Source: a virus (Duplodnaviria; Caudoviricetes). From it: a stretch of DNA of 64,000 nucleotides. The translations under genes and the position numbers were made by a program. This document shows, one piece after another, positions 1,923-62,997 of this stretch (the stretch's first letter is position 1; each line of letters starts with the position of its first letter). Location: positions 120,220 through 184,219 of IMG/VR virus record IMGVR_UViG_3300037067_011302; one strand, 5' to 3'. The notes below the pieces were generated by a model. The model saw only the letters and a list, made by a program, of their open reading frames with translations. It searched no databases and had not been told where the DNA came from.

Positions 1923-2145
1923 ATCTGATCCTCTGATATCAGAGATCTATTTATAGCTTTAAAGCTGTAAAGCTTTAAATCTGATCCTCTGATATCAGAG
2001 ATCTATTTATAGCTTTAAAGCTGTAAAGCTTTAAATCTGATCCTCTGATATCAGAGATCTAGATTTTAAGATCTTAAATTTAAGATCTTAAATATTTAAG
2101 ATCTTAAATTCTGATCTCTGATATTCTCTGATATCAGAGATATTA
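1923..2145. repeat. AT-rich tandem/palindromic repeat locus (56-bp unit x2.5, plus TTTAAGATCTTAAA x3); candidate replication origin
   Basis: TCTGATCCTCTGATATCAGAGATCT recurs at 1924, 1980 and 2036. Perfect palindromes CTCTGATATCAGAG, AGCTTTAAAGCT and TTTAAGATCTTAAA. Non-coding, between divergent genes. Confidence 0.85.
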
Positions 2146-12190: not shown

Positions 12191-12442
12191 GTGAAATTCC
12201 TATTTGAATTGACGCTTGAACGGGAACACAGATCATTGTATGTTCATTTCGTGTTCAAGTGTCCTTGGTGTAACGCACAATTTGCGTCAGAGTCTTCTGT
12301 CGTTCGACATTCGGGTCGAATTCACAAGCACGGTCGTCGTGACTATGACGTTCTCATGAAGTACAACAGCATCATTCCAACATGTGAATGTGGATGTGGC
12401 GAAGAAGTTAGTGATCGTCATTATTTAATTGTTGTAAATTGA
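12191..12442 (+). pseudogene. C2H2 zinc finger plus CxCGCG N-terminus of a homing-endonuclease-type protein, truncated just before tnpB
   Basis: CPWC...HSGRIH and PTCECGCGEEV, then an abrupt stop; no nuclease domain. Confidence 0.55.
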
Positions 12443-12451
12443 AATTGTCAA

Positions 12452-13603
12452 ATGTTTCGCGCGGTCAAAACCAAGTTGGATAATCTTTTGGAATCTGAGA
12501 TTCAGTCTCTTAGAGAAACCCAGCGTATTGCAACGAACGTGTACAATGACTATGTCAACTACGCGTTTGAGCACCAAAAGTGCTCAAGGTTCGACCTACA
12601 GAAGGCGTTGTACTATGTTGAACGGGAGAAGTTTCCTGAATTTCATTCTTCACTCGTTCAATCGATCATCGTTGAAGTAATGAGTGCACTCAAGGCGGTC
12701 AAGTACAAGTTTCGCCCACACCGGAGTGAGAACGCTTCTCTCACGTATGACGTGAGGATGTTCAAATTACGAGGTGATCAACTTTCGCTCAGCACGACAG
12801 GAAAGCGCTTCAGGACGATCATTCAGTTTCCTGACTGGTGTAAAGACATCATTAAGGAAGGAAAATCAAAGACAATTCAACTTATTTGGGACAGGAAAAA
12901 TCAGCGGTTTGATGCTCGGATCGTGTTCAAACTTCCCGATGTTGAGAAGAAGGACGAAGGTAAGGTCATCGGAATTGACCAAGGATTGGTCAATTTGGCA
13001 GTCACTTCAGAAGGTGAATTTTTTGGTGCGAAGAAAACAAGGAGGAATCAAAGGAAGTTTTTATTTTTGAGGAGAAAGCTCTCGGCAAAAGGCACTCGTT
13101 CCGCAAAGAGATTGTTGAAAAATCTCAGTGGAAAAGAGAAGCGGTTTAACCGAGACGTAAATCACTGCATTGCAAAGAAGCTTGCGTCACGTAGTGACGT
13201 AAAGGCATACGTCATTGAGGATCTCAAGGGAATCAGGAACCAAAAATGTGGGAAAAAGCTTAACAAACTTCTTTCCTCATGGACGTTCTGTCAACTTGAA
13301 TCTTTCCTCACGTACAAGTGCCTTGCGAATGGAATCTCCGTTCAAAAAGTGAGTCCAGCGTACACCTCACAGAAGTGTTCAAATTGTGGACGGATCCATA
13401 AAGAGAATCGTAATCAAGGACGTTACGTTTGTGATAAGTGTGGGTTCAAAATTCATGCAGATGTAAACGCAGCGATCAACATACGAGATAAGTGGGTCTC
13501 AAAATCATCCTATGGTTTAGCCCATAGGCAGGGTACATTCGATTGCCCGAACGGGAATAACAGAAATGTCAAGTCCCAAGATCATCACATAGGTAATGGT
13601 TAA
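12452..13603 (+). CDS. tnpB: RNA-guided endonuclease TnpB (family 1 here)
   Basis: RuvC IGIDQG / VIEDL / HADVNAA, YTSQKCSNCG..CDKCG zinc ribbon. D-E-D triad intact. Confidence 0.92.
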   Translation: MFRAVKTKLDNLLESEIQSLRETQRIATNVYNDYVNYAFEHQKCSRFDLQKALYYVEREKFPEFHSSLVQSIIVEVMSALKAVKYKFRPHRSENASLTYDVRMFKLRGDQLSLSTTGKRFRTIIQFPDWCKDIIKEGKSKTIQLIWDRKNQRFDARIVFKLPDVEKKDEGKVIGIDQGLVNLAVTSEGEFFGAKKTRRNQRKFLFLRRKLSAKGTRSAKRLLKNLSGKEKRFNRDVNHCIAKKLASRSDVKAYVIEDLKGIRNQKCGKKLNKLLSSWTFCQLESFLTYKCLANGISVQKVSPAYTSQKCSNCGRIHKENRNQGRYVCDKCGFKIHADVNAAINIRDKWVSKSSYGLAHRQGTFDCPNGNNRNVKSQDHHIGNG

Positions 13604-13625
13604 GTCGAAATGACGTACGATTATG
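13457..13625 (+). ncRNA. omegaRNA (reRNA) of TnpB family 1; scaffold ends ...TTAAGTCGA at 13608, guide starts AATGACGTACGATTATG
   Basis: Overlaps the tnpB 3' end. Boundary is set by loss of similarity to the orphan copy at 62660-62814. Confidence 0.65.
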
Positions 13626-29445: not shown

Positions 29446-32400
29446 GGCACACAGTCACATCACCGTTCATTCCTTCATTCTTGATCGCTGCTGCCGAAGG
29501 AACGAGGCCTGTGCAGTTATCGTTCAATGACGTCAGCGACACGAATATGTTGAGCACGTCGTCATTCATGTACGATGCAGCCGATGCACCGATGAAGTCA
29601 ACGCAGCAGCTCAACGTTGACTGGGCGCACTTCGAGAATCACACGTTCTTCATGTCGGCCGAGGCAAAGGTCAACCTAGCGTTCGACCAAATCATCAACG
29701 GATTTCCGTTCGATGGTTCTAGAAAGGACGTTGAAGAATTCTTTGAAAGGTTGACTGGGTACGACAAGTGGGTATTCAACGAATTTCCGAAGCACCGAGG
29801 ACAACTGCGATTTTCGGGAGGTCCTGTCGGTTCTTACGTTGTCGTCGAGGACGTTGCCGGCGGACTCTATCCTGAACTGGCAAAGAACAAGACGGGTGAG
29901 TCAATCCTGAATCCCAAGGACGGTGCATCGCTCAGTGTAGAGATGCAGTTGTTCCTTCCAAAGGTCACGAACGATTGTCAGGTCGTGTGCCAAAAATTGA
30001 GCGGCAGCACGCAGGGATTTTCGCTGTACGTTTCAGCGAGTTCACTTACGTCAAGTGCCGAGGCAATGTTCAGCGTCGTCTCGGGCACCACGTGTCTCAC
30101 CGTGCCCTTCACGCTCGACAAGGGGTTGTATAACCACCTGTGCGTGTCGTTGAATCGAGAGGGCGGCCTGCACTATCTGGAAGCATTCCAGGGTGCGGTG
30201 CTCAGTTCCTCGACACAGGCCCGTGCCGTGATCGGCGACATGGACATCGATGATTCACAGTTCATCATAGGCTCAGGGACAACGCTTTCGTTGGATGGAA
30301 CCACGTTCACTCCGAAACAGACGTTGTCGGGTACGATCGATGAGCTACGAGTGTTCCACTCAACACGTACCGAATCGCAGCAGGCGTTGTACGCTCAGAA
30401 GGCGCTGTATTCGACGTCCGACCTCAAGCTCTACTACAGGTTCAATGAGCCACCGATGTTGGCGACTTCAGGCAGCACGATCGATTCAATCGTCATTGAT
30501 AGCAGCGGAAATGCACTTCACTCGTATGTCACTAACTTCACAGGAAGCTTGAGGGAAAATTCAGCGCTCGATGCACTCAATCCGATGGTGTACGAAAAGG
30601 ATGAAACGATTCCTGTCCTATTCCCAAAGTACGCTGGCGTCGTTGATTTCAACGTTGAATTGTTGGCAAGCGCGTCCGAATACGACAGAGCAAATCCAAA
30701 CCTCATCACGAGGCTCGTTCCTGAACACTACCTGCTCGAGGGCGCAACGTTTGACGGATTTGATGAACCTGAGTGCAACGGCAATGATGCGTACTCCGGT
30801 GAAGGAATTCCCGGTGAGGGAAAGATCGGCAACGTGCAGATCATGTTGTCGTTGCTCTACGTGTACGCAAGATTTTTCGACGAATTGAAGTTGTTCGTCG
30901 ATGCGTTCAGCACGATTGGGTACGTTGACTACGACACGAACCTAAGCATGCCGAACAACTTCCTTCGTGACGTGATTTCGAGCTATGGTTTTGAGCTGCC
31001 TCCGTTGTTCAACGATTCGACGATCGAACAGTACATACGTGCCGAGAACATCGATCCGATGATCAGCACCGGTACGACGCCGTTGAAGAGCGTACAGCAC
31101 GAATTGTTGCGACGTGTGTTGATCAACCTGCCGGACGTCATTCGTTCAAAGGGAACGCAGCACAGCATCAAGGCATTCCTACGAACGATCGGCATCGATC
31201 CTGACAACAGCATGAGGATCAGGGAGTACGGCGGCCCGACGTCGCGGCACCTGACGTTCTCTCGAGAAAAGAAACGTGACGTCATGACGATGGTCGAATT
31301 TTCAACGTCATCGTACTTTGACACCGGAATATTGTCCGGCTCTCGCGTTGAGGTGGGATATCCCGAAGTCAGCGGCACGATGGTCATGAAGGACATTTTT
31401 GCGCCGCACGGCGTCAGCGACAGTGTTGATGACGGAATGTTCACGTCAGGATCGTGGACAATCGAGGCAACGTATGCATACAAGAAGACGCACGTTTCCT
31501 CGATGACGAATGCGACGCAGAGCCTCGTGAGGATGAACCTCATCGGGTGCAACACCTACAATGAGCCCGTGGGGTCAGGAATTGATCCACTTCTCGTTGC
31601 GAACTTGCTGGCGATTTCATCGTCAGTCGATCCCAGGATCTCCCTGTACATCAAGCCGACGATCTTGAATCGACCGATTGACGCTCCACTCGTGTTGACG
31701 TTGGACATTCCGACGGGAACGTTCTTTGACGGTGACGTGTGGCAGGTGTCGTTCGGGTGCCAACGAAATGATGAAATCGATTCATTGACATCATCGTCGT
31801 ACTTCTTACGCGTGGCATGTCAGAACAACGGAGAGATCTGGCACAGTCAGTCGACGTCGTCATACTACGATGATTCTGTGCAACACCTTGCAGGCAATCC
31901 CGACTATCCTAACGTTCTACGTAGCAAGTCGCTCGTCACTAGTCCTAGCCACGACCCTCACTTGAACATGGACGGCGTCGGAATCACATTGTCGATGGGA
32001 ACAAATCAATCGATCGCGTCAGGCCCAGGGGGTGACTATTTCTTGTTGAATACGACGGACGTTAATGTTCCTCCTGAAGCTCGAGCGACCGACTTCAATG
32101 GCATGGCGTCGAACCTTAGGTTCTGGTCGAAGGCACTGACGACAGACGAGTGGAAAGAACACGTGCTGAACTACAACTCACGCGGCGTTCATGATCCATT
32201 GGTGAACTTTAACTTTGAGCACGTTCGCACCGGTTCGTTCGAACGTCTAAGGCTTGAGACATTGTGTAAACAGGACACCCGTCGAGCAATTGCAACGGCA
32301 AGCCTAGGAATCCTGGGAACGATTGAATTTCTTGACTTCAGTCAGAACGGCATTCATTGTTCTGGTAGCGGTTTTCCAATCGAAAAAGACTGCGTGAAGC

Positions 32401-34294: not shown

Positions 34295-36127
34295 ACAGAA
34301 CAATTTTCAAACGCGGCAACGACGACGCTGGCTTCAGGTATTTCTTCTGTCGCGACGACGCTCACCGTGTCGTCTGCAACGAAGTTTCCAACCGTCGGAC
34401 AGTTCAGGTTGTTGATTGACGATGAGATCATGCTCGTCACGGGCGTGTCCGGCACGACGTTCACCGTCGTCCGTGCATCCGAGGGAACGACGAACGTCAT
34501 ACACTCCGCTGGTACTGTGGTGATCCATCCACTCACTGCAGGTGCGATGCTTGCATTTCAAGCAGACACACTGTCGAGCGTGTTCAGCGCGTCGTTGTCA
34601 GGATCGAGCGTCGTGTGCGCTGCGGCTGGCGTGACGATCAACGGTCCGAGCACATTCATCACCGGAAGCACATTGTTGGGGCTCACCGGTTCAACGGTGA
34701 CGCTTACGGGCAAATCGTCAATCAACGGAACGAACGTTTGCCTGACTGGAAGCAATCTCATTGGATTGTCAGGATCAACATTGTCTGCAACTGGATCATT
34801 AATGTCTGTCGACTACTCGAGGACATTCATAACTGGTAGTGCTTATCTTGGTCTAAAGTGCAATGCAACATCGTATACCGAGATAACACCAATGACAACT
34901 TGGATTCAATCGCCAGTGGCGAGCATTCAAGGAAGTACAGCATTTAATGCCTATGCTACAACAAATACAATTCTTGGATATACGAATACATTCATCACCG
35001 GAAGCATATTTTTGGGTCTCACTGGTTCATCGGTGTTGATCGCAGGTAAGACGTCAATCGATGGCACAAACGTCTGCCTGACAGGTAGTAACCTCGTCGG
35101 ACTGTCCGGTTCGTCAATTCGTGTCAATAGTGACAACACAATCATCAATGGTTCGACAACGATCGATGGCACAAGAACGTTCGTCACCGGTTCAACGTTG
35201 TTGGGTCTAAAGGGAACGACGATTGCGTTGGCTGGCAACACGACAATCGATGGAACGAATTCATATCTGACAGGTAGCAACCTCATCGGGTTGTCGGGTT
35301 CATCGATTACATTGTCCAGTGATAACATCACGTTGAGCGGAACGCTGACGACAATCGGTGTAGACGGTGTTGCATCTACACTACAATTGGGTCCGACAGG
35401 TGCTGGTGCCGTCGTGACACGAAAATTGACCACTGGCACTGGTGACAACATACACATTCAGGCAACAACAGGTGGATCATTTCAAATTAATGCAAATGGA
35501 AATGCGTTTGGATGGCCTGATGGCGTGTATGGCAACGGCACCGTCACGTATATCGGCGCAAATAATGTATGGGGAATTCAGCTTTCAAATGTTCTTTTTC
35601 AAACGTATTTGCCTCTTCGAATTAAATCATCGACAGATTCTCTTCCGTTGACAGGCGATAGCATTCTATTCGGTTCAGATGATGCTTCAAATGGTTTAAC
35701 AGGCGTGACTGTAAAGATTCGTGCCGCCAATCTGACGTTGTCAAGTTCAGTTCCAAATAGCATTGCGATTGAAACTGGTAAGGGCCCAACGATCGGTGGC
35801 ACGGGTTCTCTGAATGCCGGTGGAGGAGCACAACGAGTCAATTGGAGCGATGTTGGCGTTCAACTCACCGGAAGCCTCGTACAGATCACCGGTTCCAACA
35901 TTGGTCTATACGGCGACACGATCTTGATGCGTGGGCCCGATTCAAACAATGCGGCGTTCCATGCACAACCTCAGAGTTGGAACTCAGGAAAGGGAACATT
36001 GTTCCTTGGAGATTGTACGGTCGTTCCGGTGGCGGCACCGGTCTCAGGCGTCTACCTATACGTTGAGAGCGGGAGCCTGAAGGCGATGTCTCCGTCCGGA
36101 TACGTTGCAACGCTGTGTCCTGCATGA
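34289..36127 (+). CDS. Tail fibre-like protein with internal TGS/SGS repeats
   Basis: N-terminal TTTLASGI..FP..EIMLVT..FTVVRA module. Repeated FITGSxxLGLTGS / CLTGSNLIGLSGS units. Confidence 0.75.
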   Translation: MATEQFSNAATTTLASGISSVATTLTVSSATKFPTVGQFRLLIDDEIMLVTGVSGTTFTVVRASEGTTNVIHSAGTVVIHPLTAGAMLAFQADTLSSVFSASLSGSSVVCAAAGVTINGPSTFITGSTLLGLTGSTVTLTGKSSINGTNVCLTGSNLIGLSGSTLSATGSLMSVDYSRTFITGSAYLGLKCNATSYTEITPMTTWIQSPVASIQGSTAFNAYATTNTILGYTNTFITGSIFLGLTGSSVLIAGKTSIDGTNVCLTGSNLVGLSGSSIRVNSDNTIINGSTTIDGTRTFVTGSTLLGLKGTTIALAGNTTIDGTNSYLTGSNLIGLSGSSITLSSDNITLSGTLTTIGVDGVASTLQLGPTGAGAVVTRKLTTGTGDNIHIQATTGGSFQINANGNAFGWPDGVYGNGTVTYIGANNVWGIQLSNVLFQTYLPLRIKSSTDSLPLTGDSILFGSDDASNGLTGVTVKIRAANLTLSSSVPNSIAIETGKGPTIGGTGSLNAGGGAQRVNWSDVGVQLTGSLVQITGSNIGLYGDTILMRGPDSNNAAFHAQPQSWNSGKGTLFLGDCTVVPVAAPVSGVYLYVESGSLKAMSPSGYVATLCPA

Positions 36128-59134: not shown

Positions 59135-59273
59135 CATTCGTGTCGTACTTCTGACATGTCACTTACGTAACTTCCTGCTTCATCGACAATTGCTCGCGTG
59201 GGTTCTTGCGAACCCTCGCTCGTCTTACACCATCTCCACAGGCGTTTTCGGTCTCCCTGTGCCCCAAGGCGAC
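59135..59273 (-). ncRNA. Orphan omegaRNA of TnpB family 2; guide (G)AAGTACGACACGAATG
   Basis: ~120 nt closely matching 29305-29426 and 34155-34275, diverging right after ...GTGACATGTCA. Confidence 0.75.
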
Positions 59274-59430
59274 ACAAATTTTTTTGTGGCATTTGTTCCT
59301 TGTTGTGAAGGATCGATCCTCAAGATTGCTTGGTTTTCGCACTCTCAGAGATCAATTAATTCACCCAGAACAACGCCGAAAGTTCATATTATTTTTCCTT
59401 TCCTGATTGTTTGATATTACAACACTCTCT
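59274..59430 (-). pseudogene. tnpB: Decayed, internally deleted tnpB fragment
   Basis: Translates to SVVIS.../TFGVVLGELIDL*ECENQAILRIDP, versus SAVIS...SFGIELDESYVYPHKCESQARVGVDL, then jumps to the C-terminal NA motif. Confidence 0.55.
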
Positions 59431-59445
59431 CGCGCTGTTCATCGT

Positions 59446-62046: not shown

Positions 62047-62381
62047 CGCCACACTCGGGCACCCGGCGCGAGCACCTCCGATACACACCACGTCTCTCCG
62101 TCGTCGATCAACAACGACGACGTGGAAATTTCCGCGAATTGTTGTTGATTGAACGGCATCCACATCTTCGTGAAGAACCGACTCATGATTGTTGCGGTGA
62201 CGTCGCCGGTGTACATGTGTCGTTGTAATGATCCATATTCAATTAACAATTTGTTGGGATCGTCCATGAAGCACTTGATTTCATTGGTCACGCCCCACGG
62301 GCGCCACAACGATATTGTGCATACGGTCACCATCGTTCCGACCGGCAATTTCACGATTTCTTCACGTTCCATCGCGACCAT
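62043..62381 (-). CDS. Paralog family B-like protein
   Basis: LPVGTMVTV..LWRP..LLIDDGETWCV. Confidence 0.6.
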   Translation of the reverse strand: MVAMEREEIVKLPVGTMVTVCTISLWRPWGVTNEIKCFMDDPNKLLIEYGSLQRHMYTGDVTATIMSRFFTKMWMPFNQQQFAEISTSSLLIDDGETWCVSEVLAPGARVWR

Positions 62382-62605
62382 CACGACCTCTTCAATGGGT
62401 GCAGCGTCCTCGTCGTGCGCACTTCGCCGCTCTTCGCGCCGCACTGCATGCACTGCGTCGTCCTCATCGCGTGTCCTTTGTCGATCGTGTTCCACCACAC
62501 CTCGAGCGGCACCATCAGCTTCCTGCACGAGCACACGATCGGCGTGTCGTCAACGTCAACGTTCAGATCATCGCACCCGTCACACCACCAACTAGGAACG
62601 TCCAT
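62381..62605 (-). CDS. Small Cys-rich zinc-ribbon protein
   Basis: CDGC..CSC..CMQCG; TGATG coupling to the upstream gene end. Confidence 0.55.
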   Translation of the reverse strand: MDVPSWWCDGCDDLNVDVDDTPIVCSCRKLMVPLEVWWNTIDKGHAMRTTQCMQCGAKSGEVRTTRTLHPLKRS

Positions 62606-62997
62606 CAGAATTCCTCAGCGATTGAATCATTGTGAACATTTCGAAGCCTTCCATCACCGTCGACTTAACCATCACTTGCGTGATGATCTTGGGACTCGGT
62701 GTTCTCACCGTTCCCATGCGGGTGATCGACTACACCCTGCCTGTGGGTTATTAACCCACGGGATGATTTTGAGACCCACCTGTCTCGAATGTTCAATGCC
62801 GCGTTTACGTCGGCAATGTACACCACGACCACGTACGTCGTGCAGTACACGCTGATCCGTGGAACAGACAACACGACGGCTATGCCACGAGCGTGCCATC
62901 GTATGCTGCTTGTTCCAACGATCACGCCGTACGCATCATCGATGAGAATCATGTCACCCGCACGACAATCACCTGTCGACAGGACTTGTTGCCTCAC
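62605..62997 (-). pseudogene. Small SH3-like paralog interrupted by a 150-bp omegaRNA insert
   Basis: ...YVVVVYIAD | insert | (D)GDGRLRNVHNDSIAEEF*. The final TGA overlaps the next ATG. Confidence 0.7.
62640..62814 (-). ncRNA. Orphan omegaRNA of TnpB family 1; guide CGGTGATGGAAGGCTTCG
   Basis: Homologous to 13457-13608 (GTGGGTCTCAAAATCATCC...AGTCCCAAGATCATCAC...ATGGTTAAGTCGA) with covarying hairpins. Confidence 0.75.

Follow-up and report, generated by a model that had tools for sequence, protein, structure and literature searches.

A tnpB tail inside a small phage gene

The stretch of DNA analysed in this study (the window) covers 64,000 nucleotides and corresponds to the last 64 kb of a 184,219-bp IMG/VR virus record with a CheckV completeness of ~54%. 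Near its end, on the minus strand, a small gene belonging to a group of paralogs is interrupted by the 3' tail of a tnpB gene together with the right end of an insertion sequence (IS), and this remnant is named o1 hereafter. The features of the locus, and those of the resident nuclease gene with which o1 was compared, are listed below in window coordinates; L006 is the contig carrying the closest relative of o1.

62818..62952, minus strand: 5' portion of the small paralog gene, ahead of the interruption (ATG 62952-62950 ... GTG GTG TAC), from ORF reading
62818..62822, minus strand: TGTAC, candidate target motif (TAM) of the original insertion, the same motif being present at the L006 left end and at the empty site
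62816..62817, minus strand: AT, putatively the two opening bases of the IS left end and its sole remainder, since the L006 and T1 left ends start with ATC
62659..62815, minus strand: o1 tnpB tail and right end, a complete omegaRNA scaffold by homology to L006 and T1, covariance model and fold
62643..62658, minus strand: predicted 16-nt guide GGTGATGGAAGGCTTC, host sequence just past the right end, positioned according to PMC8612924
62605..62658, minus strand: 3' part of the host gene beyond the insert, now cut off (GDGRLRNVHNDSIAEEF, TGA 62607-62605), whose frame reopens on removal of 150 or 159 nt
62381..62605, minus strand: next gene downstream (74 aa), once in translational coupling with the interrupted gene, from the ORF list
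12452..13603, plus strand: tnpB1 (T1), resident family-1 nuclease, by Pfam PF07282 and PF01385, alignment A3 and PDB alignment
13457..13609, plus strand: T1 scaffold and right end, by homology, fold and covariance model (121 bits)

Read from the ATG at 62952, the frame of the interrupted gene enters the tnpB-homologous stretch and ends at its TAA (62667-62665, minus strand), and the gene loses its last 17 codons together with the stop/start overlap with the next gene, whose ATG (62605-62603) is overlapped by the host TGA (62607-62605). The 5' part carries a W-H/R-like motif and a hydrophobic-run motif resembling the neighbouring paralogs, a resemblance without statistical support, and the 74-aa downstream protein has an identical copy on a Logan contig of SRR18595300. 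As a preliminary description of this DNA had correctly noted, the heptamers GCCGACG (62814-62808) and GTCGACG (62664-62658) lie 150 bp apart on the minus strand, and removal of 150 nt reopens the frame to give ...YVVVVYIADGDGRLRNVHNDSIAEEF with a TGA stop overlapping the next ATG. Removal of 159 nt (62817-62659) also reopens the frame (...VVVVYGDGRLRNVH..., VVVVYGDGRL), and the spacing is then somewhat nearer to that of the paralogs (...TTIVLLGNGE...), a weak indication. A paralog-family profile scored near 0 against the restored and the interrupted proteins and supported neither restored version. A search of 5.8 billion proteins with the interrupted ORF returned only itself, blastn of the host region against INPHARED found no relatives, and none were found for the neighbouring 128-aa gene in IMG/VR or by identity look-up; within the window there were no Rfam matches and no tRNA genes. 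We infer that the interrupted paralog gene is non-essential.

The remnant o1, oriented in sense within a densely packed gene array, opens at the Ala-Asp codons of RuvC-III, includes the TAA stop of tnpB (62667-62665) and closes with GTCGAC (62664-62659), the terminal motif; its tnpB part amounts to the last 49 codons (~150 nt of a family-1 tnpB). It shares 75% identity over 156 nt (E 1.5e-24) with the 3' end and right end of T1 (~13456-13609). A search with the T1 protein retrieved P0002 (79% identity), which is encoded on a 1.7-kb ENA contig, L006 (k141_295760), and o1 shares 92% identity over 157 nt (E 5e-61) with L006:1429-1582, including an uninterrupted common stretch of 65 nt (62815-62751). 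Homology of o1 ends at GTCGAC (62659), beyond which o1, L006 and T1 have unrelated flanking sequences. Upstream of o1 neither a tnpB body nor a left-end hairpin was found, and only one copy of o1 was detected in the 184-kb contig, by BLAST as well as by covariance model. The preliminary statement that the insert holds only the tnpB tail and scaffold without an IS left end is thus right as to the hairpin, but the AT of the left end remains. With its left end reduced to AT and its tnpB to 49 codons, o1 is not a complete IS200/IS605 element (IS1341-type, TnpB-only), and is most likely a solo right end left by a TnpB-only insertion sequence of the IS200/IS605 family, of the L006 type. The part still in the gene coincides exactly with the omegaRNA module, comprising the scaffold, its terminal motif and a guide of 16-20 nt next to it.

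Target motif and origin of the remnant

L006 is a sister-phage contig of the same phage lineage and carries a complete IS of 1188 bp (L006:395-1582) at another site, where it adjoins a C-terminal dnaE fragment. The 105-nt right flank of this IS is 100% identical to positions 1880-1776 of the studied genome (reverse complement), where the site is IS-free. The empty site reads AAATTTGTAC/AACACAATC (genome 1776-1880 region, outside the window; TTTGTAC/AACACAATC, the slash marking the insertion point) and the L006 left flank reads GATTTTGTAC/ATCATCATTT, the element beginning with ATCATC. The start of the L006 left end at ATC was set independently by the onset of homology between T1 and L006, and the T1 left end also begins with ATC. 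TTTGTAC therefore precedes both the left end of the L006 IS and the matching empty site, and TGTAC is likely the target motif (TAM) of L006-type elements, as deduced from this single filled/empty pair. The pair bears the signature of an IS200/IS605 element inserting 3' of a target motif and causing no duplication, a mechanism described previously (PMC8612924; 10.1101/2023.03.14.532601). The left flank of T1 is TTAGTG and lacks TGTAC, a local alignment of the two left flanks scored only ~2 sd above shuffles, and TGTAC occurs in the genome at a frequency of 0.0011 per nt. Among more distant family members, a left-end hairpin could be recognised at only four loci, and no TAM consensus emerged from their discordant flanks. 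The filled/empty pair provides a target motif, putatively TGTAC, for an uncharacterised TnpB clade, and shows these transposase-less elements to be polymorphic within a phage population, as a homing lifestyle predicts.

Several further observations concern the L006 guide and the dnaE region. The L006 guide matches the studied genome perfectly and adjoins TGTAC there, a filled/empty polymorphism of the kind homing would use. A 15/16 match to this guide (AACACAATCATCAATG) is present at window 35135-35150 (plus strand), preceded by AGTGAC, inside a repeat-rich 612-aa gene downstream of T3, where ~0.004 such matches are expected by chance; both sequences encode NTIIN, and coding convergence is possible. 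The dnaE-like gene of the studied genome is fractured (L133:984-4516; genome 984-4516, minus strand): an N-part of 599 aa with PHP, PolIII-alpha and the N-terminal half of a Hint/intein domain is followed by a free-standing 319-aa endonuclease-like ORF and then by a C-part of 289 aa opening with an intein C-block. In L006 the position directly upstream of the dnaE C-part is taken instead by the TnpB IS and a different gene of 98 aa. Elsewhere, an intergenic region at window 1923-2090 consists of three tandem 56-nt units, two of the three identical, rich in short palindromes (ATCTGATCCTCTGATATCAGAGAT...).

The junction within the interrupted gene reads ...GTG GTG TAC/AT/T GCC GAC GTA AAC..., and the tail begins exactly at the T of the CAT codon, since the L006 tnpB reads ...CAT GCC GAC GTA AAC... 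at its RuvC-III His-Ala-Asp block. The onset of tail homology is at 62815, directly after AT, and the insert equals L006 395-396 plus L006 1429-1582 plus a 3-nt loop insertion, in total 159 nt in frame, so that one 1032-bp deletion turns an L006-type IS into o1. The presence of TGTAC-AT directly at the junction thus favours a canonical insertion followed by one internal deletion. In this model, a full element of ~1.19 kb would have inserted immediately 3' of TGTAC in the small paralog gene, and a deletion of ~1.03 kb would then have taken away all but the first two bases of the left end together with 87% of tnpB, either in place or through incomplete copying during a homing or repair event, giving TGTAC, AT, the 157-nt tnpB tail and right end, and the flank. 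We put the probability of this origin, with insertion at TGTAC in the canonical way and loss of the middle by one internal deletion or by incomplete copying, at about 0.8. An eroded full IS had been named beforehand by the preliminary description as the scenario opposed to its own, and the junction TGTAC/AT/TGCCGAC is the expected leftover of one internal deletion.

The preferred course of that description was different: only a 150-bp scaffold would have entered an intact gene between G(C/T)CGACG microhomologies, with GCCGA(C) as the TAM, which would amount to a new mode of guide acquisition. The heptamers are exactly 150 bp apart, removal of 150 bp reopens the frame to the next ATG, and the left-end hairpin is absent, all of which suits such an entry; in addition, GCCGAC is one base from GTCGAC, and TAM and terminal motif are often similar (10.1101/2023.03.14.532601). 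The heptamers, however, were already in the parent IS: L006 carries GCCGACG as codons of tnpB, and its 3' terminus reads ...GAGTCGAC with a terminal GTCGAC. The terminus is TTGAC or TCGAC in 16 family members (consensus TTGAC), with unrelated flanks beyond, and the heptamers are spaced 147 nt apart in both L006 and T1, the 3-nt loop insertion raising this to 150 nt in o1. The heptamers are therefore not microhomology of an insertion site, and their spacing is a property of tnpB. The deduced TAM of the nearest IS is TGTAC, 9 nt upstream, with AT exactly at the junction, rather than a motif like GCCGA, and with a TAM so close in sequence to the terminal motif the occupied allele would be at risk of cleavage. 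We know of no mechanism that mobilises a right end alone, and consider a scaffold-only insertion very improbable. To our knowledge a guide is gained by insertion in every IS605/TnpB element, hence o1 represents no new mode of guide acquisition and seems instead to be the remnant of an ordinary insertion.

Alternatively, a full IS might have inserted 3' of GCCGAC, in line with the 150-nt removal, and later been shortened by deletion or abortive gap repair between the TGCCGAC repeats of the host flank and of tnpB. The 7-nt identity of TGCCGAC at the junction and in tnpB is microhomology of the deletion-promoting type, and the restored IADGDG keeps the D-G of the paralogs. Such an insertion would nevertheless need a non-canonical target, CCGAC, whereas the deduced target is TGTAC, and would leave TGTAC-AT at the junction to coincidence (~6e-5 for the full 7-mer at one given position, ~1% for TGTAC within 10 nt); the shorter spacing favoured by the paralogs points weakly in the same direction, and this course of events appears improbable. 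Origin by reverse transcription of a processed RNA was also considered and rejected, because the insert has no foreign 3' guide and begins with the left-end dinucleotide.

The two lengths of removal predict different joins in an uninterrupted allele, GTGTAC/GGTGATGG for a 159-nt skip and GCCGAC/GGTGATGG for a 150-nt skip. An exact 20-mer of the 150-nt version (...TACATTGCCGACGGTGATGG...) and an 18-mer of the 159-nt version (GTGTAC/GGTGATGG) had no match in IMG/VR. The empty allele that the preliminary description had looked to relatives for was thus found neither there nor among 5.8 billion proteins, nor in any other collection searched, and the 159- and 150-nt removals stand as candidate reconstructions.

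The scaffold RNA and other tnpB elements of the genome

The same five-hairpin fold was obtained for o1 (-57 kcal/mol, z -4.8), T1 (-35 kcal/mol, z -2.3) and L006 (z -4.0), and compensatory changes were found in 23 of the 27 consensus pairs in a 16-sequence alignment of the scaffold family. The proposal of structural selection on the RNA is thereby supported at the level of the scaffold family. A covariance model (R1) built from this alignment matched the tnpB 3' end in more than 90 fetched loci, and in the studied genome it matched only o1 (123.9 bits, full length) and T1 (121 bits), both of which are among its training sequences. These features support o1 as a putative protein-less omegaRNA scaffold.

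The stem-preserving differences between o1 and TnpB1 that had been pointed out earlier are real, but the first stem of o1 contains one C.A mismatch (columns 76/94), intermediate between the T-A of T1 and the C-G of L006. Apart from this mismatch, all stems, family-invariant positions and the terminal motif are kept. With T1 as outgroup, the o1 lineage shows five substitutions and one loop indel, with no pair broken and one G.U changed to G-C, and a rough estimate of the probability of such an absence of disruptive changes under neutrality is ~0.05-0.1. Some of these changes may predate the deletion, and therefore no selection on the o1 copy itself is claimed. On the opposite strand, the first scaffold hairpin together with ATGATTTTGA (window 62740-62762, plus strand) scores as intrinsic-terminator-like.

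Four tnpB genes are present in the genome, T1, T2 and T3 in the window and T4, which is cut by the contig start (genome 1-795, minus strand; L133) and belongs to family 2 with 83-85% identity to T2 and T3. The terminal motif of T1 is GTCGAA (window 13604-13609) rather than the family GAC ending, and its scaffold forms only a weak fold (z -2.3), so that the resident element is less canonical-looking than the orphan o1. The 161 nt upstream of tnpB1 (window 12252-12412) are a 94% copy of genome 73270-73430 (minus strand), comprising a promoter-like region and the first ~55 codons of a zinc-finger gene; homology of this copied segment stops ~1 base before the T1 left end, and T1 therefore lies at a rearranged junction and not at a simple insertion site.

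All three tnpB fragments of the genome (o1, o2 and o3) are 3' tails. The two further fragments are as follows.

Window ~59150-59445, minus strand: o2, family-2 protein-less module of ~300 nt
Genome 30994-31290 (L134:1495-1791), minus strand: o3, family-2 protein-less module of ~300 nt

These two share 87% identity over ~300 nt and have unrelated flanks, their last 130 nt are 84% identical to the T2 and T3 scaffolds, and in a covarying stem o2 is like T3 and o3 like T2; they look like family-2 modules of the PATE type. The o2 module also splits another small paralog gene and adjoins a tRNA 3' fragment. Outside the studied genome, the IMG/VR contig L036 carries, at the L057 site, an L057-type IS of which the left end and the final 230 nt survive, and another IMG/VR contig, L030, retains a 194-nt tail without a left end and with a decayed terminus. 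These other contigs were searched by C-terminal peptide patterns, so that the bias towards tails among them is partly by design, and the bias within the genome is not. Single-protein searches with T1 and P0003 returned no viral loci, and a 20-mer search with the subfamily scaffold returned no viral contig.

No match to TnpA, either Y1 HUH (PF01797) or serine recombinase (PF00239), was found on the contig, which represents ~54% of the genome. The elements on this contig thus lack the TnpA of autonomous IS605/IS607 transposons, and spread by nuclease-driven copying between co-infecting genomes is therefore more likely than transposition.

Guide, partner nuclease and comparison with known systems

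In experimentally studied TnpB systems, an RNA of ~150 nt derives from the tnpB 3' end, the 16-20 nt of flanking sequence beyond the right end serve as its guide, and TnpB accepts its own RNA in trans (PMC8612924). Protein-less elements can likewise supply guides in trans, under a common logic of TAM and terminal motif (10.1101/2023.03.14.532601). Following this logic, the preliminary claim that the guide is the flank past the right end and matches the intact allele finds support, and the o1 guide GGTGATGGAAGGCTTC would match the uninterrupted allele. The guide is unique in the 184-kb contig, its next-best match having three mismatches. The single filled/empty pair gave TGTAC as the motif, and a TGTAC is found 9 nt upstream of the tail; the predicted o1 target sequence is GGTGATGGAAGGCTTCGAAA, which would be preceded by TGTAC in an uninterrupted allele.

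The nuclease previously proposed as the partner of o1, TnpB 12452 (T1), has an intact RuvC triad (D176, E256, D337) invariant in alignment A3 and a zinc-ribbon (TNB) domain, and could be aligned to solved Cas12f and TnpB structures. An L006-type TnpB seems nevertheless the best match for o1, with a scaffold identity of 92% vs 75% for T1. TnpB1, with 79% protein identity to the L006 enzyme and this 75% scaffold identity to o1, may be compatible with the o1 RNA. Of two Logan contigs of SRR18595300 bearing neighbouring genes, one ends at window 62786 and one starts at 62780, exactly as expected of k=31 break points if the o1 allele coexists with a second copy of the shared 65 nt, break points that were computed from the gene coordinates alone. 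Neither contig breaks at 62808 or 62817, where an empty allele would branch off.

No dedicated promoter was detected for o1, which would be transcribed within the longer mRNA of the gene array. Natural omegaRNAs are likewise transcribed within the tnpB mRNA. A compatible TnpB, of the L006 type from the same population or perhaps the resident TnpB1, would then load the o1 RNA, the complex would cut TGTAC+GGTGATGGAAGGCTTC in the uninterrupted allele of a co-infecting relative, and repair from the remnant-carrying genome would copy the remnant into the cut allele; the occupied allele would be safe because its motif lies 159 nt away from the target. Present use of o1 as a guide in trans by phage TnpBs is plausible, but we consider it less likely than not.

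With the same origin, o1 may by now be inert, neither processed nor loaded, and persist since the interrupted paralog is dispensable, and to this we give roughly even odds. IS fragments are common. The intact stems, invariant positions and terminus of o1, and a model score equal to that of nuclease-attached scaffolds, sit poorly with inertness, as do the sense orientation in the gene array, the TnpBs in the genome, the near-cognate TnpB in the population and the acceptance of RNA in trans (PMC8612924). It is favoured, on the other hand, by the lack of an empty allele or dedicated promoter in our searches, by a substitution pattern that does not clearly reject neutrality and includes one C.A mismatch and one loop insertion, and by L030, a similar tail whose terminal motif has already decayed.

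Whether or not o1 is still used, it offers a well-resolved case of the decay of a TnpB IS in a phage, with a guide-RNA module left at a canonical target. Continued loading of o1 in trans would mean that a guide module can survive the loss of its nuclease gene and serve several nucleases, which would bring such elements closer to multi-guide systems. A wider reading, which we regard as rather unlikely, is that remnants without left ends are kept as functional, the four TnpBs and the three protein-less modules forming a multi-guide system of homing and competition, where every remnant would direct a TnpB in trans against the uninterrupted allele of co-infecting relatives. If true, such a system would stand naturally between transposon nucleases with one guide and CRISPR-like systems with many.

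Among known systems, the omegaRNA/reRNA of IS200/IS605 TnpB elements, with ISDra2 as paradigm (Karvelis 2021, PMC8612924), resembles the module predicted for o1: it is a ~150-nt RNA from the tnpB 3' end and right end, takes the following 16-20 nt of flank as guide, and targets TAM plus flank in the empty site, as o1 would. Unlike these elements, o1 has no tnpB in cis and no left end, would need loading in trans and cannot transpose. PATEs (Meers 2023, 10.1101/2023.03.14.532601), which often encode omegaRNAs, are, like o1, non-coding elements that keep the guide-RNA part while TnpB is encoded elsewhere, but they keep both subterminal hairpins, are mobilisable and are often multi-copy, whereas o1 retains 2 nt of the left end and is single-copy. 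Having neither a left-end hairpin nor a second copy, o1 falls outside PATEs and MITEs, and o2 and o3 (~300 nt, two copies) are nearer to PATEs than o1 is. The internally deleted transposon of L036, compared with L057, exemplifies elements left by one deletion or incomplete gap repair and parallels the origin proposed for o1 in that its termini are at the original site and the middle was lost in one step, yet it keeps the whole left end, whereas the deletion in o1 would spare only the first two bases there. Closest in sequence stands the L006 IS, with 92% identity in the tail, the same GTCGAC terminus and the same TGTAC on the left, and differs from o1 in being complete and at another site.
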